Shown: positions 41,407 through 64,000, numbered from the stretch's first letter. The stretch: DNA of 64,000 bases from Candidatus Microgenomates bacterium (GCA_016182045.1 JACOYE010000011.1:39-64038); one strand, 5' to 3'. Numbers and translations are program-made. The notes: generated by a model from the sequence alone, not told the origin.

Positions 41407-41435
41407 TTGACAAACATTAGCACTCGTGGTATCTT
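41407..41435 (+). promoter_or_regulatory. Candidate sigma70-like promoter of the hrcA-grpE-dnaK operon (TTGACA-17nt-TATCTT)
   Basis: Read directly. It overlaps a CIRCE-like element. Confidence 0.4.
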
Positions 41436-41443
41436 ACTGCTAG
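41417..41443. promoter_or_regulatory. Degenerate CIRCE-like element (TTAGCACTC-N9-TACTGCTAG)
   Basis: The left half is a perfect CIRCE half site. The right half matches 6/9 of GAGTGCTAA. Confidence 0.4.
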
Positions 41444-41474
41444 TCCTCCGACTCCCTGCAGTCGCTCAGGATTG
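41443..41474. repeat. GC-rich palindromic element, family 2, in the hrcA leader
   Basis: gtcctccgactccctgcagtcgctcaggattg. Confidence 0.55.
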
Positions 41475-41478
41475 TAAT

Positions 41479-42225
41479 ATGACAGAATTATCTGACAGAC
41501 AAAAAGCACTTTTAAAAGCAATTGTGGAAGAGTATATAGAGTCAGCAGATCCGGTGGGTTCGGAGGTGATTGAGAGAAAGTATGATCTGGGGGTGTCCCC
41601 TGCCACTATCAGGATTGAGATGGGGAAATTAACTGAGATGGGATATCTTAGACAGATTCATACATCAGCCGGAAGAACTCCTACCTCTATGGGAATGCGG
41701 GTTTATATAAATGAGCTGATGAAGGAAAAACAGCTGCCTGTTACAGCTGAGGTTTCTATTAAAGAAAAGCTTATGTCAAATAGAGCTAAGGAAGAAAGGC
41801 TTTTGAAGGAAGCTGTTACAGCTTTGGCCAGTCGCCTTGACATGTTAGGTCTTGTCAGGGATGACAATGGACAGGTTTATTATGCCGGAGCTGCCAATAT
41901 TTTGGACTGGCCGGAGTTTTATGATATTGATGTTGCCAGATTTGTGCTGTCTTTGTTTGATGAAAACCCGATGTTGTCTGAGATTATAGGTAAGGCAGTT
42001 GGACCGGATCCAATACATATCCTTTTTGGTGAAGAGTTAGGGTATGAGGATTTGCTACCAACCGGATTTGTTTTTACCAGATATGAGTTTGTACCTGTAA
42101 ATCCTGGGGTTGCCGGGAAAGGTGGAGTAATTGGAGTGATTGGTCCTGCCAGGATGAATTTTGCTCTGGTTTTACCATATGTTAAATATGTCAGGAATTT
42201 GGTTTGTGAAGCTATGAGAGTGTGA
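41479..42225 (+). CDS. hrcA: Heat-inducible transcription repressor HrcA (short form). Start at ATG MTELSDRQKALL.
   Basis: The N-terminal wHTH LSDRQKALLKAIVEEYIESADPVGSEV and its position upstream of grpE-dnaK identify HrcA. Confidence 0.85.
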   Translation: MTELSDRQKALLKAIVEEYIESADPVGSEVIERKYDLGVSPATIRIEMGKLTEMGYLRQIHTSAGRTPTSMGMRVYINELMKEKQLPVTAEVSIKEKLMSNRAKEERLLKEAVTALASRLDMLGLVRDDNGQVYYAGAANILDWPEFYDIDVARFVLSLFDENPMLSEIIGKAVGPDPIHILFGEELGYEDLLPTGFVFTRYEFVPVNPGVAGKGGVIGVIGPARMNFALVLPYVKYVRNLVCEAMRV

Positions 42226-42260
42226 TGGGGTTAAATGGAGTGAGCGGATAATCCGAAGGA

Positions 42261-42297
42261 GATCCCTCGACTCGCTTCGCTCGCTCGGGATGACAAA
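42261..42297. repeat. GC-rich palindromic element, family 2 variant, intergenic hrcA-grpE
   Basis: gatccctcgactcgcttcgctcgctcgggatgacaaa. Confidence 0.55.
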
Positions 42298-42326
42298 ATG
42301 CGTTAGGAAATTGTACGCATTTTGTC
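42292..42326. promoter_or_regulatory. Perfect 11-bp inverted repeat gacaaaatgcg-N13-cgcattttgtc, 14 nt upstream of the grpE ATG
   Basis: Read directly. No U-tract follows, so it is not a canonical terminator. Confidence 0.5.
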
Positions 42327-42339
42327 AAATCGGCTTAAT

Positions 42340-42891
42340 ATGGCTAAGAAAGAAAACAAGGTTGAACAATTAGAGCAAAGAGTGGTTGAGCTGGAGAATC
42401 AGCTAAAAAGAGCAGTGGCTGATTATCATAATTTGGAGAAAAGAGTCAGTGAGGGAAGGTCTGAGTTAACAAATTATGTTGGAGCAGAGCTTTTAAGAAG
42501 GTTGATTCCTACTTTGGATCATTTGGAACAGGCTTTAGCTGGAGCAAGCGAGACAGATAAGCAGTCTGGATGGTTTAAGGGTATAGAGCTGGCTGTTAAA
42601 GAGTTTAAATATGTTTTACAATCTGAAGGGTTGGATGAAATTGCAGCAGACGGTCAATTTGATCCGGCCCTTCATGAGGCAGTTGACGTGAGGGTAATGC
42701 CGCCTTCGCTTGACAGCTCCGGCGAGCCAAAGGATAATATTATTTTGGAGGTAGTCAGGAAAGGTTACAGCTTAAATGGAAAAGTTTTAAGGCCGGCAGC
42801 AGTTGTAGTCGGCAGAAAGGATATAAATGAGCGGGGCGGACAATCTGAAATAGATCCTTCGCTAATCGCTCAGGATGACAAACAAATTTAA
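42340..42891 (+). CDS. grpE: Nucleotide exchange factor GrpE (start at ATG MAKKEN)
   Basis: Coiled-coil N-terminus. ...DHLEQAL..., ...FDPALHEAV... and the C-terminal beta domain. Confidence 0.9.
   Translation: MAKKENKVEQLEQRVVELENQLKRAVADYHNLEKRVSEGRSELTNYVGAELLRRLIPTLDHLEQALAGASETDKQSGWFKGIELAVKEFKYVLQSEGLDEIAADGQFDPALHEAVDVRVMPPSLDSSGEPKDNIILEVVRKGYSLNGKVLRPAAVVVGRKDINERGGQSEIDPSLIAQDDKQI
42853..42882. repeat. GC-rich element, family 2-like, forming the 3-prime end of grpE (encodes EIDPSLIAQDDKQI)
   Basis: gatccttcgctaatcgctcaggatgacaaa. Confidence 0.5.
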
Positions 42892-42924
42892 AAAATTGTA
42901 ATTTGTTTGTCAAATAGCAAATAT

Positions 42925-44847
42925 ATGGCTAAGATTGTAGGAATTGATTTAGGAACAACTAATAGCGCAGTGGCGGTGATGGAGGGCGGGAAGCCCAAGG
43001 TTATACATTCAGCTGAGGGGGAAAATATTATCCCTTCTGTGGTTAATCCTCTGAAAAATATTGTAGGAAGGGTTGCTAAACGTCAGGCTGTGGTTAATCC
43101 CAAAGAGACCATTTTTTCCATTAAAAGATTAATGGGTAGGAAATTTAAAGACCCAGAGGTTCAACGTGATATCAAGTGGCTTCCCTATACCATCAAAGAA
43201 GGTAAAAACGGCATGGCTGTTGTTGAAGTAGAAGGCCATGAATATACTCCTCAGGAAATTTCTGCCCAGATTTTACAAAAAATTAAAGCTGATGCTGAAT
43301 CTTATTTAGGTGAAAAAGTGACAGATGCTGTGATTACTGTCCCAGCTTATTTTGATGATGCTCAAAGGCAAGCCACCAAACAAGCAGGAGAGATTGCCGG
43401 ATTAAATGTCCAAAGAATTATTAATGAACCAACTGCGGCAGCTTTAGCCTATGGTTTGGAAAAAAGCCATGCTCACACCATTGCTGTTTATGATCTTGGG
43501 GGAGGCACTTTTGATATCTCTGTTTTAGAACTGGGTGAGGGAGTATTTGAGGTCAAATCCACCAACGGTGATACACACTTGGGCGGAGATGATTTTGATC
43601 AAGTTGTTTTAGATCATCTGGCAGAAGAGTTTAAAAAAGAACAGGGTGTGGATTTAAAAAATGACAGGCAAGCCCTGCAAAGACTGCGAGACGCTGCGGA
43701 AAAAGCTAAGATTGAGTTATCTTCCACCCAAGAGGCTTCAGTTTCTATTCCATTTGTGACTGCTGACTCAAGCGGCCCCAAGCATTTGGAGATGAAATTA
43801 TCCAGGGCCAAGCTTGAAGCTATGGTCAAATCTTTAATTGATAAAACTTTTGAGGCTGTGAAAGCTGCTTTAAAAGATGCCAAGATAGAGGCCAAAGATA
43901 TTGAGGAGGTAATTTTGGTTGGTGGCATGACCAGAATGCCTGCAGTGCAAAAGTCGGTCCAAGATTTTTTTGGCAAAGAACCACACAAGGGTATTAATCC
44001 TGATGAGGTGGTGGCAGTGGGGGCTGCTATTCAGGGAGGAGTTTTAGGTGGAGAGGTTAAGGATGTACTTTTGCTCGATGTGACGCCCTTAACTTTGGGA
44101 ATTGAGACATTAGGTGGAGTACGAACACCTTTGATACCCAGAAACACTACTATTCCTTCTTCTAAATCAGAAATATTCTCAACAGCTGCAGATAATCAAA
44201 CATCTGTGGAAATAAATGTGCTGCAAGGTGAGCGAGAGATGGCAGCTGACAATAAATCTCTGGGCAGATTTATTTTAGATGGTATTCCACCAGCACCCCG
44301 TGGAGTTCCTCAAGTTGAGGTCACTTTTGATATTGATGCCAATGGCATTTTAAATGTTTCTGCCAAGGATAAAGCCACTTCAAAAGAGCAAAAAATAACT
44401 ATTACCGGTTCAACAGGTCTTTCCAAAGATGAAGTGGAGAAAATGACCAAAGAAGCAGAGGCTCATGCTGAGGAGGATAAAAAGAGAAAAGAAGAAATTG
44501 AGATTAAAAATCAAGCAGATACTTTAGTTTATACAGCAGAAAGAAGCTTAAAAGATGCCGGGGATAAAGTTTCAGCTGAGGTAAGAACTGATGTTGAGCA
44601 AAAATTAAATGACTTAAAAGGGGTGATTCAAACTGCTTCTGCCGAAGATTTAAAACCCAAAATGGATGCATTATCTGAGGCTTTACAGAAAGTAGGAGCT
44701 GCCATGTACCAACAGCCGGGGGGAGAAGGTCAACCAGCCGGAGAACAACCACAAGCAGGTGAAGCTGAAGAGCCCTCTTCCGCCAAGGCTTCGGAGGGTG
44801 AAACAGTTGAAGGTGAAGTGGTGGAGGAAGAGAAAAAGGAAGAATAA
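42925..44847 (+). CDS. dnaK: Chaperone DnaK (Hsp70)
   Basis: [18 protein letters not shown] and the full Hsp70 architecture with an acidic EEVD-like tail. Confidence 0.97.
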
Positions 44848-55595: not shown

Positions 55596-56675
55596 GTGAA
55601 ATACGATAGTCAAATTAGTGAGCTTAAAAATTTACTGCCTACTGCTAAATCTGTTTTGATTGCCCTGCCTGTTGGAGCTGACATAGATAAATTGGCAGCA
55701 GCCCTTGCATTATTTTTAGTGCTTGAAGCGTCTGGTAAAGAAGTAACAGTTGTTTCTGATGATACCATTACCGTGGGTCAATCACATCTTTTCGGAGTAG
55801 ATCATATCTCAAAAAATCTTCCCTCTGGTCAAGGTGGTAATTTAACCTTAACTTTAGAGGGGGTAGCCTCCTCAAATGGTACCATTCCAGCCTTGGAAAA
55901 ATTGGATTGGTATGCCCAAAATAATAATTTAAATTTGGTTTTCCATGTTATTGCAGGTCAAATGTTTCGACCCTCAAGAATTGTGTCACATTATCAAGGC
56001 AGTGGTTTTAATTTAAATTTTGTGGTGGGAGCAGCCAATTTGGACAGCTTAGGCTCAATTTATAAGCAAAACTCCGACAGTTTTTCCGGTGTACATATTG
56101 TCAATATTGATAATCAAGGCAATACCGGCTTTGGTACTACCAATATTTTGGATACCAATGCCTCATCTATATCTGACATAATGGCTAATTTAATTATTGA
56201 TCTTGGTTTGAACTTGGATGCAGATGCTGCCTCAAACCTTTTAACAGGAATTTTTGATGCTACCAACAATTTATCGGATCCAAGAATTTCTGCAGATACA
56301 TATATGGTGGTGGCTAACTTATTAAGAGCAGGAGGGAAAAAGCCCTTCGACTCCAGTTCGGCTTCGCTCACTGCAGGCGCTCAGGGCAGGCCAGCCACAC
56401 CACAAGCTCCCCGGCCAGATTTATCTGCTTTGATTCCACCAGAACTTCCGTTGGTCAGTGAGATGTCAACACAACCAGTGGCTGAATTCACCCCGATCCC
56501 GATAGAATCGGGACCGATTGAATCGGGGTTCACCACCCCACCTGTGGTGTCCCAACCAGCCGGGAATAATCGACCCTCTCCTGAGGAAAGACCTGTACAG
56601 GAGGGTGTAGTCTCCGAAACCATTGAACCGGAATGGCTAACCCCCAAAATCTTTAAAGGTACATCACTGGGGTAA
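55596..56675 (+). CDS. DHH-superfamily (NrnA-like) protein with degenerate catalytic motifs and Pro-rich C-terminal tail
   Basis: NrnA-like N-terminus (SVLIALPVGADIDKLAAALAL) but DHH reduced to DHI and no GGGH. It contains an in-frame family 2 GC-rich element. Confidence 0.4.
   Translation: MKYDSQISELKNLLPTAKSVLIALPVGADIDKLAAALALFLVLEASGKEVTVVSDDTITVGQSHLFGVDHISKNLPSGQGGNLTLTLEGVASSNGTIPALEKLDWYAQNNNLNLVFHVIAGQMFRPSRIVSHYQGSGFNLNFVVGAANLDSLGSIYKQNSDSFSGVHIVNIDNQGNTGFGTTNILDTNASSISDIMANLIIDLGLNLDADAASNLLTGIFDATNNLSDPRISADTYMVVANLLRAGGKKPFDSSSASLTAGAQGRPATPQAPRPDLSALIPPELPLVSEMSTQPVAEFTPIPIESGPIESGFTTPPVVSQPAGNNRPSPEERPVQEGVVSETIEPEWLTPKIFKGTSLG
56343..56388. repeat. GC-rich palindromic element, family 2-like, in-frame in the DHH-like gene
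   Basis: cccttcgactccagttcggcttcgctcactgcaggcgctcaggg. Confidence 0.5.
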
Positions 56676-57305: not shown

Positions 57306-57410
57306 ATGGTTAAGATGCCACTTGATCCAAAAATAAAGCAGAAGATCATTAAAGAGTTTGCTACCAAGAGCGGTGATGCTAAATACCCATGCCGGGTATG
57401 GGTTAAGTAG
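57306..57410 (+). pseudogene. Orphan 5-prime fragment paralogous to rpsO ([28 protein letters not shown]...)
   Basis: 20 of the first 22 residues are identical to the true S15 N-terminus ([21 protein letters not shown] at 58109). About 78% nt identity, with mostly synonymous differences. It then diverges and stops. Confidence 0.55.
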
Positions 57411-57440: not shown

Positions 57441-57830
57441 TCACTCTTCCCCACTAATTATTGTCATTTTTCCAAATAGGGATTTTTTGGTGGATTTATT
57501 TAAAAGAGAGGTTAATTTTTTATCAATCTGATCGAGTGTTAGATTTGGAGATACACCAATTACACCAGTTGATCTACTTGTTGATACTAAAGGTTTGAAG
57601 TGTTTAATATTGAGAGTGACAAGAATTCTTTCTTCCTGTTTGGCAAGATCATAAACTTTTGTATCAGAAGATGCGCCTTGTTTATAGTCTCCAGCAACAT
57701 GTTTGACATCAAATCTGCTGTTTGTAACAGGTAAATCTTTTCTATAGTAGAACCCTTCATCAAGCAGCAACTTGTGTTTGTAAAATTTCCGGGGCATCTT
57801 TAGCAGAGCTGAGCTTTTCAACCAATTCAT
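57441..57830 (-). CDS. DUF5615 (Mut7-C/PIN-like) putative toxin
   Basis: KLLLDEGFY...DVKHVAG...ERILVTLNIKHF, paired with the upstream DUF433 gene. Confidence 0.55.
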   Translation of the reverse strand: MNWLKSSALLKMPRKFYKHKLLLDEGFYYRKDLPVTNSRFDVKHVAGDYKQGASSDTKVYDLAKQEERILVTLNIKHFKPLVSTSRSTGVIGVSPNLTLDQIDKKLTSLLNKSTKKSLFGKMTIISGEE

Positions 57831-58002
57831 TGACAGCGCCCTTTATAGTTCTTAAAGATACCCAAGGATATCCTTCTTGAATTGATTCAATAGTATGACC
57901 TTCTTTGAGGCGTGCTACGATCACTGCTATTGGTATTCTGGTACCAACTATACAAGGTGCACCACCCATAATATCAGGTTTGGAGGTGATATACTTTTTC
58001 AT
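57760..58002 (-). CDS. DUF433 putative antitoxin
   Basis: KPDIMGGAPCIVGTRIPIAVIVARLKEGHTIESIQEGYPWVSLRTIKGA matches DUF433. Confidence 0.6.
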   Translation of the reverse strand: MKKYITSKPDIMGGAPCIVGTRIPIAVIVARLKEGHTIESIQEGYPWVSLRTIKGAVNELVEKLSSAKDAPEILQTQVAA

Positions 58003-58108: not shown

Positions 58109-58378
58109 ATGCCGTTAGATGCAAAAATTAAGCAAAAGATAATCAAGGAATTTGCCACCAAAGATGGTGATACGGGTTCCCCTGAAGTTCAAGTAGCCCT
58201 TTTAACCGAACAGATTAAAAATTTGACAGCTCATCTTAAGGAGCATCCGCATGATATTCACTCAAGGAGAGGACTTCTGTCCATGGTTAACAAAAGAAGA
58301 AGATTACTGCAATATCTGGTTAAAAAGGATGAAGAAAGGTATAAGACTGTTATTGAAAAGCTAGGTTTATCCAAATAA
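58109..58378 (+). CDS. rpsO: 30S ribosomal protein S15
   Basis: [57 protein letters not shown]... Confidence 0.95.
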
Positions 58379-58399: not shown

Positions 58400-60781
58400 A
58401 TGAACAAAGTTATTACAAAAGAGATAGATCTAAATGGTCGCAAGTTGAAACTTGAAACTGGCAAATTGGCTTTGCAAGCTGATGCTTCAGTAGTGGTATC
58501 TTGGGGCGAAACAGTAATTTTGGCAACTGTGGCTACCCAGCCTCAAAAAGAAGATATTGGTTATTTTCCATTATCTGTTGAATATGTGGAAAAACACTAT
58601 GCCGGCGGAAGAATTTCCTCTTCCAGATTTATTAAAAGAGAAAGTAAACCCACTGATGAGGCTATCTTGACTGGTAGATTGATTGATCGCTCTATCCGTC
58701 CACTTTTCCCCAAAGATTTTAAAAATCAGGAAGTACAGGTGATTTTAACTGTTTTATCAGTTGATCAAAACAATGATCCTGATATTGTCGGTTTGATTGG
58801 AGCCTCTGCTGCACTTTCCATCTCCTCAGTGCCTTGGAGCGGACCAATTGCTGCTATCAGAGTGGGTGAGCGGGATGGCAATTTGGTGGTAGATCCCACC
58901 ATAGATCAGATGGAACATCTTAACATGGATCTTATAGTCGCTTCAACCAAAGACAAGGTGGTAATGATAGAAAGTGAAGCTAAACAAACTTCAGATGAGG
59001 TGATTTTTTCAGGCATCAAGGAAGCCCATGCTCAAGTCCAGCCGATCATTGAGCTGATAGAGCAGTTTAGTAACCAAGCAGGCAGAGAGAAGCAAACCTA
59101 TTCTCATTTGGTGGAAGAGGTGGAAGAGGCACTGCTTTTGGAGGTGAAAAAGATCACTAAGGAAAGAATTGAGGCTGCACTTTTTGACAATGAACATCCT
59201 TGGCATGAGGCAACTGGTGATTTGATCAAAAAAGAATTGGCTCTTCAATATGCAGAAACTTTAACTCCTCAGATAATTTCCGGAATTTTTGATAAGGTAG
59301 CCAAAGAAATCTTGCACGAGGCAGTTCTTAAAAAAGGTAAAAGAGTTGATGGCAGGGCCATGGATGAGATTAGGCATTTGGAGATGGAAGTAGGAATTTT
59401 ACCAAGAACTCATGGATCTGCTCTTTTTCAGCGGGGTGACACACAAATTTTGTCTGTGGTAACCTTAGGCGCTCCATCCTTGCAACAAACTTTGGAGGGG
59501 ATGGAAGGTGAGAGGCAAAAAAGATTTATGCATCATTACAATATGAGTATCAATCCTTTTTCTGTGGGTGAGGTTAAAAGGTTGGGTCCTCCAAATCGAC
59601 GTGATATCGGTCATGGATCTTTGGTGGAAAAAGGTTTAAATGCGGTGATTCCTTCCGAGGATAAGTTTCCCTATGCCATCAGAGTGGTATCAGAAGTCTT
59701 GGCAGCCAATGCTTCCACCTCAATGGCCGCTCTTTGTGGATCAACCTTGGCATTACTTGATGCCGGTGTACCTTTGTCAGAATCTGTGGCAGGAATTGCC
59801 TTGGGACTTTTGACTGATGGTGATAAATGGCAGGTCATTACCGATATGAGGGCTGTAGAGGACTTTTACGGTGATATGGATTTTAAGGTGGCAGGTACTA
59901 AAAATGGAGTGACAACAATTCAGATGGATACTAAACTTGACGGATTAACTTTTGAGATTATTGAGAAAGCACTGGAAATGGGTAAAAAGGCCAGGCTAGA
60001 AATCTTAGAACAGATGAATAAAGTAATAGCGGCTGCTGGTCCTTTATCTCCTCATGCTCCCAGAGTGGAGATATTACATATAAAACCAGAAGAGATTGGT
60101 TTGCTAATTGGGCCTGGAGGTAAAAATATTAATGGCATAATTTCCAAAACTGGAGCACAGATTGATATTGAGGATGATGGGACTGTGATGGTTTCTGGGA
60201 CCAACTCGGAAGGGGTGGATAAGGCAATTGCCTCAATTGAAGGCATGTTTAAACAAGTCAATGTAGGGGATGAGTTTTTAGGCAAGGTGGTCAGAATTGC
60301 TCCTTTTGGAGCTTTTGTGGAGATTGCTCCTGGAAAAGACGGATTGGTTCATATTTCCCAGATGGCTCCAGGACATGTGGAAAGACCAGAGGATGTGGTG
60401 ACTGAGGGGCAAGAAGTGAAGGTGAGGGTAACTGATGTTTCTCCAGAAGGAAAAATTGGCTTATCCATGCTTTTTGGAGCAGACGTAAAAAAGGAATCTG
60501 AAAGCAGGCCTAGAAGTAGTAGTTTTAGACCAAGACCTTCATTTGGAAACTCGCCTCGCTTCGCGGGCGGAGCGGGTAGATCAAGATCATCAGGTGGTGG
60601 GTATAGATCGGGAGGGGGCAGACGGGATTTTGGTGTAAGTGAGAGAAGAGGGCCTTTTGATAGAACCAGGGCCAGATTTGAAAGAAAACCATTTGGAGCA
60701 AGAGGTGGGGGAAGACCTGCCCGCCGAAGCGGTTTTGGCGAAGGCGGGGATAGAGGTGGACGTGGTGGCTTCAATAGATGA
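58400..60781 (+). CDS. pnp: Polynucleotide phosphorylase with Arg/Gly-rich C-terminal tail
   Basis: Two RNase PH domains, KH (LIGPGGKNINGI), S1, then an RGG-rich ~100 aa tail. Confidence 0.95.
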   Translation: MNKVITKEIDLNGRKLKLETGKLALQADASVVVSWGETVILATVATQPQKEDIGYFPLSVEYVEKHYAGGRISSSRFIKRESKPTDEAILTGRLIDRSIRPLFPKDFKNQEVQVILTVLSVDQNNDPDIVGLIGASAALSISSVPWSGPIAAIRVGERDGNLVVDPTIDQMEHLNMDLIVASTKDKVVMIESEAKQTSDEVIFSGIKEAHAQVQPIIELIEQFSNQAGREKQTYSHLVEEVEEALLLEVKKITKERIEAALFDNEHPWHEATGDLIKKELALQYAETLTPQIISGIFDKVAKEILHEAVLKKGKRVDGRAMDEIRHLEMEVGILPRTHGSALFQRGDTQILSVVTLGAPSLQQTLEGMEGERQKRFMHHYNMSINPFSVGEVKRLGPPNRRDIGHGSLVEKGLNAVIPSEDKFPYAIRVVSEVLAANASTSMAALCGSTLALLDAGVPLSESVAGIALGLLTDGDKWQVITDMRAVEDFYGDMDFKVAGTKNGVTTIQMDTKLDGLTFEIIEKALEMGKKARLEILEQMNKVIAAAGPLSPHAPRVEILHIKPEEIGLLIGPGGKNINGIISKTGAQIDIEDDGTVMVSGTNSEGVDKAIASIEGMFKQVNVGDEFLGKVVRIAPFGAFVEIAPGKDGLVHISQMAPGHVERPEDVVTEGQEVKVRVTDVSPEGKIGLSMLFGADVKKESESRPRSSSFRPRPSFGNSPRFAGGAGRSRSSGGGYRSGGGRRDFGVSERRGPFDRTRARFERKPFGARGGGRPARRSGFGEGGDRGGRGGFNR
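60549..60576. repeat. GC-rich element, family 1, within the pnp tail
   Basis: actcgcctcgcttcgcgggcggagcggg. Confidence 0.5.
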
Positions 60782-60805: not shown

Positions 60806-61831
60806 ATGGATTCTGCCCGAGCGACAATTGATCAGCTGAAGATAAAGTTAAGCCAAGCTAGCCTACCTTCTGATATATCTGAAAAACTTTTAAATCTTCT
60901 ACAGTTTCCAGGCACGGGAGCGGAACTTGAAAAGTTGATTGCTTACATTGATTTTGTAGTTTCCCTGCCTTTTAACAAATTAAGCCAAGATATTTTGGAC
61001 CTTCCCAGAGCCAAAGAAATTTTGGATAAAAATCATTATGGTTTGCAATCTGTTAAAGATAGAATCCTGGAATATTTGGCAGTTTTAATCTTAAACAAAA
61101 GAAAAAGCTACGCTCAAGCCTTTGGACATGCTCCGATTTTGGCCTTTATTGGTTTGGCGGGTAGCGGTAAGACATCTTTGGCTTATTCTATTGCAGAATC
61201 TTTGGGAAGACCACTTCAGAGAATTCCTTTTGGAGGTTTGGGTGATCCTTTAATGCTTCGTGGTCAATCCCGTGTTCATCTGGATTCTGAACCAGGTCAA
61301 ATTATCAAAGCTATAAAATCTGCAGGAGTTAATAATCCGGTCATACTTTTGGATGAGATTGACCGGGTGGAACAAGATAGAAGGGTGGATATTATGGGCG
61401 TTTTGGTGGAACTTTTGGATCCTGCCCAAAACCAAGCTTTTTTGGATCATTATCTGGATTTCCCTTATGATTTATCACAAGTTTTATTTATTGCCACAGC
61501 CAATAATACCTCAAATATAGCCACAGCTGTTTTGGATAGATTAGAGCCAATTCAGATGCCGTCTTATTCAGACGAGGAAAAAATCACTATTGGTAAAAAT
61601 TATCTTTTGCCAAAAATTATTGAGGAAAATGGTTTGGGATCTGATATGCTGATGATAGATGAGATGGCCTGGCCGCAAATCATCAGACCACTGGGATATG
61701 ATGGGGGGATAAGATCTTTACAAAGAAGTTTGCAAAGTATCTGCAGAAAAGTGGCACGGGGGGTGGTGGAAGGGGAGATAGGGCCTTTTAAGGTGGGAGT
61801 GGAGAATGTGGGAGAATACTTAGGAGGATGA
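60806..61831 (+). CDS. Lon-type AAA+ ATPase module lacking both the N-terminal substrate domain and the C-terminal protease domain
   Basis: NHYGLQSVKDRILEYLAVL, Walker A GLAGSGKTS, Walker B ILLDEIDR, sensor FIATANN...LDRLEP. It ends at the ...GEYLGG boundary where the Lon protease domain would begin. Confidence 0.6.
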   Translation: MDSARATIDQLKIKLSQASLPSDISEKLLNLLQFPGTGAELEKLIAYIDFVVSLPFNKLSQDILDLPRAKEILDKNHYGLQSVKDRILEYLAVLILNKRKSYAQAFGHAPILAFIGLAGSGKTSLAYSIAESLGRPLQRIPFGGLGDPLMLRGQSRVHLDSEPGQIIKAIKSAGVNNPVILLDEIDRVEQDRRVDIMGVLVELLDPAQNQAFLDHYLDFPYDLSQVLFIATANNTSNIATAVLDRLEPIQMPSYSDEEKITIGKNYLLPKIIEENGLGSDMLMIDEMAWPQIIRPLGYDGGIRSLQRSLQSICRKVARGVVEGEIGPFKVGVENVGEYLGG

Positions 61832-61893: not shown

Positions 61894-63585
61894 ATGAAAA
61901 TGTTTAAACCAAAACAATTTATACCAGATCAAGGCCCAGGCCTGAAATTAATTCCATTGGGGGGAGTAGGGGATGTGACCAAAAATATGTATGTTTATGA
62001 GATGGGTAATGACATCATCATTATTGATTGTGGAGTGGGTTTTCCCGATGAGGCCATGCCGGGAGTAGACCTGGTTATTCCCGACATCTCTTATTTGAGA
62101 GGAAAACAAGATAAAATCAGAGCAATTTTAATTACCCACGGACATGAAGATCATATCGGCGGACTGCCCTATATTTGGCCCCAGCTTCAGGTTCCCATTT
62201 ATACCCAAAGATTAACAGCCGGATTTATCAGAGCCAAATTCTCAGAACATAATTTGCCAAAAAATAAAATTATAGAGGTAAAGCCAGATCAAAAATTAGA
62301 TTTGGGTATATTTAAAGTTTCTTTTTATCTGGTGTCACACTCTGTGCCAGATTCTACCGGAATAGTTTTAAAAACACCCCTTGGTACAATTATCCATCAG
62401 GCTGATTTTAAGATTGATTGGACACCGGTATCAGGACAGGTGACTGATGTGGGAACAATTGCCAACTTGGGGAAGGAAGGGGTTTTGCTTTTACTGATAG
62501 ATTGTCTAAGAGTAGAAAAGCCCGGTTTTAACAGATCGGAAAAATCAATAGAAGCTTCTTTTGAGAAAGCGGCCTTGGAAACGAAGGGCAAGCTTTTAAT
62601 AACCATGACCTCATCGAATGTGTCCAGGATGCAACAAGCCGTCAGCGTGGCCCAACGTTTAGGCAGGAAGGTGGCTGTGGTTGGCCGTTCCTTTGAAAAT
62701 AATGTTCAGGTCTCCCGGGATTTAGGGTACTTGCATGTTCCTTCCTCAGTTATGATTACCCCGGATGCCATATCCTCCTTTGATCCCAACAAAATTTTGG
62801 TACTGATCGCCGGTGCTCAAGGTCAGCCTGATTCATCCTTAGTACGAGCTGCCAATGATGAGCACAAACAGGTTAAACTAAGGGAAGGTGATAGTGTATT
62901 ATTTTCAGCCGATCCCATACCTTCCACAGAATCAGCTCAAAATGCCCTGATTGATGATTTAACCTCCAGAGGGGTTGATGTTTATTATTCAGCCATAGCC
63001 TCTGATTTGCATGTATCCGGTCATGCAGCCTTGGAGGAATTGAGATTGGTGGTCAATTTAATAAAACCCAACTTTTTGATACCGATCGGTGGAACCTTTA
63101 GACATATGAAGGCTTTCTCAAATATGGTTTATGAAATGGGTTATCAAAAAAAACAGGTTTTGGAAATAGAGGAAGGGGAGGTGGTAGAGGTGAGAAAAGA
63201 TAGTATAAAACCTTCAGGTAGAGTAGATGTGCAAAATGTCTATGTTGATGGACTGGGGGTGGGTGATGTAGGTCATATAGTTTTAAGAGACAGAAGAGTG
63301 ATGAGTGAGGAGGGAGTGGTGGTAGTGGTGGTGCCCATTGATCAACGTACGGGAAAATTGATAGGTGAGCCGGATATCATCTCAAGAGGATTTGTATTTG
63401 AAGAATTTGCCTCGGACCTTTTGGAGGAGGCCAAAATAGAGCTTAAAAATACTTTGATTGAACATACCAAAAGAATGCCAGATTGGCGGTTTATCCGTAA
63501 GATGATTGAAGATGATTTGGGAAATTTCTTTTATTCTACGACACAAAGAAGACCACTGATTTTACCGGTGGTAGTGGAGGTATAG
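61894..63585 (+). CDS. rnj: Ribonuclease J (metallo-beta-lactamase/beta-CASP)
   Basis: HGHEDHIGG motif, beta-CASP region and overall 563-aa architecture. Confidence 0.9.
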   Translation: MKMFKPKQFIPDQGPGLKLIPLGGVGDVTKNMYVYEMGNDIIIIDCGVGFPDEAMPGVDLVIPDISYLRGKQDKIRAILITHGHEDHIGGLPYIWPQLQVPIYTQRLTAGFIRAKFSEHNLPKNKIIEVKPDQKLDLGIFKVSFYLVSHSVPDSTGIVLKTPLGTIIHQADFKIDWTPVSGQVTDVGTIANLGKEGVLLLLIDCLRVEKPGFNRSEKSIEASFEKAALETKGKLLITMTSSNVSRMQQAVSVAQRLGRKVAVVGRSFENNVQVSRDLGYLHVPSSVMITPDAISSFDPNKILVLIAGAQGQPDSSLVRAANDEHKQVKLREGDSVLFSADPIPSTESAQNALIDDLTSRGVDVYYSAIASDLHVSGHAALEELRLVVNLIKPNFLIPIGGTFRHMKAFSNMVYEMGYQKKQVLEIEEGEVVEVRKDSIKPSGRVDVQNVYVDGLGVGDVGHIVLRDRRVMSEEGVVVVVVPIDQRTGKLIGEPDIISRGFVFEEFASDLLEEAKIELKNTLIEHTKRMPDWRFIRKMIEDDLGNFFYSTTQRRPLILPVVVEV

Positions 63586-63619: not shown

Positions 63620-64000
63620 ATGGCAAGAAGACGTTCTATTTATAGACTACCCAGATTAAAATTAAGACATCGGACCATTACTGCCATAGGTTCTTTGGTG
63701 GCTTTGATCTTGGCTGTTTTATCTGCCGTATCTTTGGTAACTCAATCAGCTGCTTTGGCATTTTGGAGCGACTTTTTGAAAGATTTACTTGGCTGGACTT
63801 ATATTTTTTCTCCGCTGGTCTTTTTATTATCCGGTTTAGTGTTATCAAGAGTTCGCTGGCGTTTTGCCCAAGTTAATGTTTTACTGGGGTTAATTTTACT
63901 TATATTGTCTTTGGTAGGATTAACAGCCGCCTTTTGGCCAGAAAGGGGAGGTTCCATAGGATTGACACTTTGGATACAGTTATCTTCTTTTGTGACTCCT
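63620..64000 (+). CDS. Partial ORF (runs off the window): basic N-terminus then multiple TM helices. Possibly the FtsK/SpoIIIE N-terminal domain.
   Basis: MARRRSIYRLPRLK...TM segments. Truncated by the window end. Confidence 0.3.
   Translation, partial: MARRRSIYRLPRLKLRHRTITAIGSLVALILAVLSAVSLVTQSAALAFWSDFLKDLLGWTYIFSPLVFLLSGLVLSRVRWRFAQVNVLLGLILLILSLVGLTAAFWPERGGSIGLTLWIQLSSFVTP

Follow-up and report, generated by a model that had tools for sequence, protein, structure and literature searches.

The gene at positions 60806-61831 (plus strand) of the window, by which we mean the whole 64,000-nt stretch of Candidatus Microgenomates bacterium DNA that we analysed, encodes an AAA+ ATPase derived from LonA that has neither the protease domain nor the N-terminal domain of Lon. 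We refer to this gene as X. It is an intact gene with an ATG start and a product of 341 aa, which consists of the LonA three-helix bundle, the nucleotide-binding subdomain and the lid. It belongs to a clade that in the sampled loci is confined to Patescibacteria, and which is under strong purifying selection. The reading that we favor, and that we hold to be somewhat better than even, is that the product of X is a non-proteolytic, oligomeric ATPase of Lon descent that remodels or chaperones its targets. We infer its oligomerisation, its ATPase activity and its non-degradative function from comparisons of sequences.

Pfam identifies only two domains on the ORF, AAA (PF00004, residues 113-249) and Lon_lid (PF22667, residues 273-324). 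Neither the Lon N-terminal substrate-binding domain (PF02190) nor the S16 Ser-Lys protease domain (PF05362) is found by Pfam on this chain, which stops at the equivalent of E. coli Lon (EcLon) residue 580. An HMM built from the N regions of 16 full-length Lons has no match in the ORF, in the window or in the orthologous loci. The NCBIfam family “lon” (TIGR00763, endopeptidase La) is matched over profile positions 251-567 of 795, and the ORF scores under the curated cutoffs both of this family (319.2 bits versus 608.05) and of NF008053 (255 bits versus 891). The closest solved structures are all LonA or LONP1, such as E. coli Lon 6u5z (residues 244-580, E-value of about 1e-72) and the B. subtilis LonA construct 3m6a, for which residues 10-339 align with the ORF. 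The identity to the LonA proteins (E. coli Lon, B. subtilis LonA and human LONP1) is 41-45% over the whole ORF. The AlphaFold2 model of the 341-aa protein has a pLDDT of 86.3 and a pTM of 0.80; LonA AAA+ modules superpose on the whole model (TMq 0.8-0.9), and an engineered AAA+ fragment of E. coli Lon (6n2i) is approximately coextensive with it (TM 0.89/0.90). The Pfam domains, the TIGR00763 match and the alignment to LonA residues 244-580 all agree with the first-pass annotation, which had described a stand-alone Lon-type AAA+ module without N or protease domain. The motifs named there (NHYGLQSVKDRILEYLAV, GLAGSGKTS, LLDEID, ATANN and LDRLE) are present in the ORF, and the ORF does end where a Lon protease domain would start, as the alignment with E. 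coli Lon stops at residue 580.

The N-terminal helical region (residues 1-100; 60806-61105, plus strand) corresponds to the LonA three-helix bundle and the linker helix that precedes the nucleotide-binding subdomain. The AlphaFold2 model places helices at residues 2-17, 22-31, 39-53, 66-76 and 81-99 of this region, and a column comparison identifies P21, Y47, P55 and H77 as residues that it has in common with full-length Lons. It had been proposed that the ORF starts about 70 aa ahead of the Walker A motif. That distance is wrong: 115 residues precede the Walker A glycine G116, and they are the LonA helical bundle that sits atop the AAA+ ring. At the other end of the protein, the alpha-helical lid subdomain (residues 251-341; 61556-61828, plus strand) includes the Pfam Lon_lid domain and the sensor-2 arginine.

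All the residues expected of a working Lon ATPase are in place, in every case on the plus strand. Walker A is GLAGSGKT (residues 116-123; 61151-61174), where K122 corresponds to EcLon K362, and Walker B is ILLDEID (residues 180-186; 61343-61363), with D183 and E184 invariant. Sensor-1 is Asn233 (61502-61504; EcLon N473), the arginine finger is Arg245 (61538-61540; EcLon R484), preceded by a D244 that is, like R245, invariant in all members, and sensor-2 is Arg303 (61712-61714; EcLon R542). The EcLonA numbering for sensor-1, the arginine finger and sensor-2 is that of PMC9569914. Amongst 120 close and 14 distant members, G116, G119, G121, K122, T123, D183, E184, N233, R245 and R303 are invariant. 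The spacing between K122 and D183 is 60 residues, which is the LonA value for the distance from the Walker A lysine to the Walker B aspartate (PMC9569914). The arginine finger acts in trans, and its conservation implies that an oligomer remains the working form of the protein. Since Walker A, Walker B, sensor-1 and sensor-2 are invariant as well, the protein in all likelihood forms a ring or spiral of the Lon kind and is an active ATPase. Isolated LonA AAA+ modules are reported to oligomerise poorly without the protease domain, so that the formation of a ring by the product of X may need a partner.

A search of 5.8 billion proteins finds more than 120 clusters with 72-81% identity to the protein, all of them 336-375 aa in length and all with AAA and Lon_lid only. 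The named sources of these clusters are Candidatus Daviesbacteria or Microgenomates. Remoter short relatives (39-56% identity, 351-669 aa), which an exhaustive search of representative sequences brings up, also end at the lid and are without Lon_C or Lon N. The N-terminal extensions of P0136, P0141, P0142 and P0149 were considered as a Lon N domain and rejected; they are low-complexity sequence rich in Q, P and S. We also rejected as closer relatives the top representative matches, P0121-P0139, which are tandem-AAA Lon proteases with 30-41% identity per module, and which seemed closer because the scores of tandem AAA modules add up. These and others, such as P0143-P0148, are proteins of 890-1400 aa with two or three tandem Lon-type AAA+ modules, one Lon_C and no Lon N. 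One comes from Candidatus Dependentiae and most are metagenomic; they resemble multi-ring Lon proteases, and some of their modules have non-canonical pore loops, of which RGHNRTW is an example.

When a single genome of each GTDB species is scanned with the family alignment, 80 loci are obtained, to which four from the preceding comparisons are added. In all of the Patescibacteria-type loci (46/46), the ORF is 332-511 aa from stop to stop and lacks the N domain as well as the C domain. In all of the loci from other phyla (38/38), the architecture is N + AAA + C, the full-length proteins having 773-951 aa; the pore-loop motif RGHRRTY[IV]G is read in 33 of these 38 loci and could not be parsed in 5. 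Alignment with full-length Lons, which the first-pass annotation had called for, sets the protease-less clade apart from the 36 full-length sequences: in a distance (NJ) tree of this limited sample, with 294 AAA+ columns and 46 protease-less versus 36 full-length sequences, the protease-less sequences are monophyletic in 200/200 bootstraps. The hosts are in the Microgenomates group (Davies-, Shapiro-, Levy-, Ames- and Roizmanbacteria), in Dojkabacteria and in at least one MAG labelled Parcubacteria. Loci with unreliable MAG titles were assigned to Patescibacteria by sequence identity and shared synteny. In L007, L008, L010, L012, L013, L016, L032 and others, the gene order is the one usual in Patescibacteria and the identity to the product of X is 49-73%, and the titles found on such contigs (“uncultured Gammaproteobacteria”, “Pseudomonadales” and one “Candidatus Methanoperedens”) are probably placeholders or the result of mis-binning. 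In our searches of the literature we came across no account of a Lon without protease in Patescibacteria. The clade is undescribed, and databases carry the protein as “AAA family ATPase”, the name that the sources of the clusters also give, except for one “Lon protease”.

The columns by which the clade differs from full-length Lons cluster mainly in the two pore loops. In pore-loop 1 (GQSRVHLDSEPG, residues 153-164; 61262-61297, plus strand), His158 stands where Lon canonically has a tyrosine (EcLon Y398). Full-length Lons read RGHRRTY[IV]GA[ML]PG in this loop, with the tyrosine in 36/36 of the aligned sequences, whereas the window protein reads RGQSRVHLD. Across the clade (n=46), the residue at the tyrosine position is H (9), F (9), S (6), R (5), Y (5) or others, so an aromatic F or Y is kept in 14/46 species; amongst the close Daviesbacteria relatives (n=120), it is R in 88, K in 22 and H in 5. 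After this position, the Ile/Val of Lon becomes mostly Pro in the clade, and the next Gly becomes Asp or Glu. The whole stretch of loop and flank at residues 147-160, which is DEAE.RGHRRTY[IV]G in Lon, is variable in the clade. In the pore-loop 2 region (RVEQDRRVDIM, residues 187-197; 61364-61396, plus strand), the canonical “D..RGDP” is replaced. Within residues 191-196 the glycine of RGDP is lost, position 194 being G in Lon and variable in the clade, and position 196, a Pro in Lon, is Ile in 89% of the clade. Other changes fixed in the clade are P117L, G253S, T297G and E299D, and the resulting signature of L117, I196, S253, G297 and D299 is present in the window protein in 5/5 positions. 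These patterns suggest that pore loops 1 and 2 are precisely where constraint has been relaxed or rewired. As far as sequence conservation can tell, the motor chemistry is preserved and the canonical translocation paddles are not. Some of the clade members with F or Y at the pore-1 position may still grip polypeptides.

The order of genes in the window is nusA-infB-(PIN and unknown genes)-(toxin-antitoxin pair)-rpsO-pnp-X-rnj-ftsK. The gene for ribosomal protein S15, rpsO (58109-58378, plus strand), is a homologue of the Ribosomal_S15 gene found at the same position in two other Daviesbacteria loci, L002 and L003. The polynucleotide phosphorylase (PNPase) gene pnp (58400-60781, plus strand; Pfam RNase_PH twice, KH and S1) ends 24 nt upstream of X, and the RNase J gene rnj (61894-63585, plus strand; Pfam Lactamase_B, beta-CASP and RNase_J_C) begins 62 nt downstream of it. 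The last gene is the 5’ part of ftsK (63620-64000, plus strand), which runs off the end of the window and which tblastn with the L002 FtsK matches at 56% identity over residues 1-127. Neither the pnp-X gap nor the X-rnj gap contains a terminator or promoter signal above chance, and given these short gaps without a terminator signal, X is probably co-transcribed with pnp and rnj. In evaluable Patescibacteria loci, pnp is upstream on the same strand in 24/36 and rnj downstream on the same strand in 28/38; both flank X in 20/32, an arrangement that is kept down to about 45% identity. In L002 (8778-9952) and L003 (7398-9955), pnp and X are separated by genes for one to three variable proteins, which are secreted or anchored in the membrane. 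Several of these proteins end in ...QILSTFKF, and a Bro-N domain on one neighbour suggests mobile DNA.

The neighbourhood is not the same everywhere. In the cultivated Saccharibacterium Southlakia epibionticum ML1, the order is pnp-hypothetical-rnj-ftsK, without a Lon-type ATPase (PMC10633639 supplements). For this organism no Lon orthologue (K01338) is listed and Lon-related folds occur only in ComM and RadA, while ClpP and FtsH are present (PMC10633639). The ATPase is thus not universal in Patescibacteria, and as the pnp...rnj-ftsK block also exists without X, X may stand next to pnp and rnj because the gene order was inherited, and not because the functions are coupled. In one related subclade of 5 loci, which includes a Roizmanbacteria MAG, X stands divergently beside groES-groEL, a proteostasis context in which the adjacency probably reflects a single evolutionary event. 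No CIRCE/HrcA operator is found upstream of X in these groESL-adjacent loci. We observe in them (L023 9915, L025 9964, L029 9970, L031 9958 and L035 9961) a conserved TTGTCAAG[TG]G-N9-13-[CG]TGCTAA motif that ends 5-26 nt before the ATG of the Lon-type ATPase, and that may be the promoter of a leaderless or short-leader mRNA. The remaining clade members have unrelated neighbours.

Several other features of the window are worth recording. At 57315-57389 (plus strand) there is a copy of about 75 nt of the 5’ end of rpsO, with 80% identity over 25 aa, and between this copy and the intact rpsO (58109) lies a DUF433/DUF5615 toxin-antitoxin-like pair (57441-58002, minus strand). Together they look like the insertion of a cassette that duplicated the start of rpsO. 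The C-terminal 95 aa or so of PNPase (about 60500-60781) form a long low-complexity tail past S1 that is rich in Arg, Gly and Ser (...GGAGRSRSSGGGYRSGGGRRDFG...GGDRGGRGGFNR), and that resembles tails of the RGG type that bind RNA or form condensates. Between infB and rpsO, a gene at 55596-56675 (plus strand) sits where rbfA/truB usually stand and encodes a 359-aa protein without a Pfam match; its counterparts are at the same place in L002 and L003 with 57-60% identity, and the protein appears in many other loci. Elsewhere in the window, a CIRCE-like element, TTAGCACTC-N9-TTACTGCTAG with 3 mismatches to the consensus, is found at 41417-41443, in front of hrcA-grpE-dnaK (41407-44847). The element falls where the hrcA ORF begins, which points to an ordinary HrcA heat-shock regulon and to a listed start codon of hrcA, TTG, that lies too far upstream.

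Several other explanations of X have to be weighed against a non-proteolytic ATPase, and two of them take their start from the absence of the protease. An ORF that terminates exactly at the AAA/protease boundary could be a degraded lon pseudogene, or it could end early through a mistake in sequencing or assembly. Its boundaries are found again in the more than 120 clusters and the 46 loci, which come from independent assemblies; the pairwise dN/dS is 0.06-0.15 among six orthologues (with dS saturated), and the ATPase motifs are invariant. The gene that follows is rnj, as the first-pass annotation had it, and no remnant of a protease is found in any frame past the stop. The degraded lon proposed there is refuted by these data, the premature stop by assembly error fails on the recurrent length and architecture, and the missing domains are not in the adjacent gene out of the window either, the first such gene being ftsK. 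We give a pseudogene or an artefact practically no credence. A two-component Lon, in which the ATPase docks on an S16 protease or another peptidase ring encoded elsewhere, as ClpX does with ClpP, is a more serious proposal. The three-helix bundle, which is an entry portal, and all the ATPase motifs are retained, and 14/46 species have F or Y at the pore-1 position. A protease may also be encoded at a distance, as the search for S16 took in the 64 kb of the window and roughly 20 kb per orthologue. Against it, an HMM for Lon_C that was derived from 16 full-length relatives, and that gives 255-307 bits on positive-control loci, finds nothing at E<=1 in the six frames of the 64-kb window, nor in 749 kb around the 46 orthologues (flanks of about 10 kb). 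The pore-loop Tyr and Gly, present in 36/36 full-length Lons, are not conserved in the clade, and we know of no docking element for Lon AAA+ modules. In addition, the Lon subfamilies described so far are all single-chain enzymes with ATPase and protease (PMC9569914). With the pore loops rewired and no S16 in the window or within about 10 kb of X in 46 genomes, the two-component Lon suggested by the first-pass annotation finds no support in our data, and we regard it as unlikely. Two candidates for a separate partner were also rejected. The genes inserted between pnp and X in L002 and L003 are not split Lon N or P domains, as they have no Lon similarity and no counterpart in the window, and the M16 peptidases beside X in L005, a distant member, are near X in no other locus.

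Two further explanations concern the role of the ATPase. The ATPase could be an accessory of RNA decay, the AAA+ part of a Patescibacteria degradosome that with PNPase and RNase J would remodel RNA-protein complexes or these two nucleases. The same-strand order pnp-X-rnj in 20/32 evaluable loci, kept to about 45% identity and with gaps of 24 and 62 nt in the window, argues for it, and Lon AAA+ modules do bind nucleic acids. However, the old nusA-infB-rpsO-pnp...rnj-ftsK block also occurs without X, for example in Southlakia epibionticum, and other members are found beside groESL or in unrelated contexts. We also see no shift in charge or pI between the clade module and canonical Lon that would point to nucleic-acid binding; net charge and pI are alike (median pI 6.0 versus 6.1). 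We consider a dedicated role in RNA decay improbable. The other explanation is that X is the ATPase component of an anti-phage defence system. Lon-like and AAA+ ATPases occur in such systems, and in the window there are toxin-antitoxin genes close by (57441-58002). PADLOC gives generic AAA matches only, at 13-22 bits, the best being a partial match to DolB with 21.7 bits. Moreover, X has a fixed place in an operon of core housekeeping genes throughout the clade (here the nusA-infB-rpsO-pnp-X-rnj-ftsK block), and the loci share no variable defence-island neighbours. Of the earlier suggestion of an ATPase-only Lon-like protein akin to those of defence systems, the first half stands and the analogy with defence does not; we think a function in defence very improbable.

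The non-proteolytic ATPase that we favor would work as follows. The protein would assemble as a Lon-like ring or spiral and hydrolyse ATP, and it would not thread polypeptides processively into a protease. With pore loops 1 and 2 rewired and no peptidase fused or adjacent, processive threading of this kind is most likely absent. The ATP would be used instead to remodel, hold or release clients, as expected of a chaperone-like “Lon without teeth”. The clients could be proteins, or they could be RNA-protein complexes linked to PNPase and RNase J, the RNA-decay enzymes with which X is probably co-transcribed. A stronger version would have many Patescibacteria swap Lon for a non-degrading motor coupled to PNPase and RNase J, either as a remodeller of RNA-decay complexes or as a new class of stand-alone Lon-derived chaperones. 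We advance that version as a speculation with a small chance of being right.

A conserved natural Lon motor without head or protease, present in many lineages of the ultra-small Patescibacteria, would mean that the Lon AAA+ module can serve a non-proteolytic job. It also matters for annotation. As X fails for the N domain, the P domain, the pore-1 motif and the family cutoff, Lon protease is the wrong class for it. Genes that carry the name “Lon protease” in these Patescibacteria genomes probably encode no protease, and the name would overstate the proteolytic capacity of these organisms. The product of X could reveal what the Lon motor does, and how it assembles, without a protease ring.

Compared to known systems, the motor of X is unmistakably of the LonA type. 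LonA from E. coli and B. subtilis and human LONP1 have, like X, a three-helix bundle, an alpha/beta subdomain and a lid (TM 0.8-0.9), and also Walker A and Walker B with the 60-residue spacing, sensor-1, arginine finger and sensor-2. Unlike LonA, X has no N domain and no S16 domain, it does not conserve “TY[IV]G” and “RGDP”, and it falls below the TIGR00763 cutoff. Other members of the Lon family, LonC and LonB/LonBA, resemble X in that one of their modules has degenerated or been rearranged. LonC, such as that of Meiothermus taiwanensis, keeps the protease and has an inactive ATPase-like domain, and X is the reverse case, with the ATPase intact and the protease wholly lost. X also has no membrane anchor or other insertion in the AAA+ core, and its K-to-D spacing is that of LonA. 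In each of the described subfamilies (A, B, C and BA), a single chain carries the ATPase and the protease (PMC9569914). ClpX, ClpA and HslU are, like X, separate ATPase chains of the same AAA+ clade (the HslU/ClpX/Lon/RuvB group), but their pore-1 loop is still aromatic, their peptidase-docking elements are defined and their peptidase partner is known, none of which is evident for X. There are other examples of function without proteolysis. Proteolytically inactive Lon shows chaperone-like activity, and the plant FtsHi pseudo-proteases (PMC8197885) are relatives of an AAA+ protease that function without proteolysis. Both FtsHi and inactive Lon retain an inactive protease domain, whereas X has lost the protease domain together with the N domain, and its product is a naturally occurring equivalent of the AAA+ fragment engineered from E. 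coli Lon.
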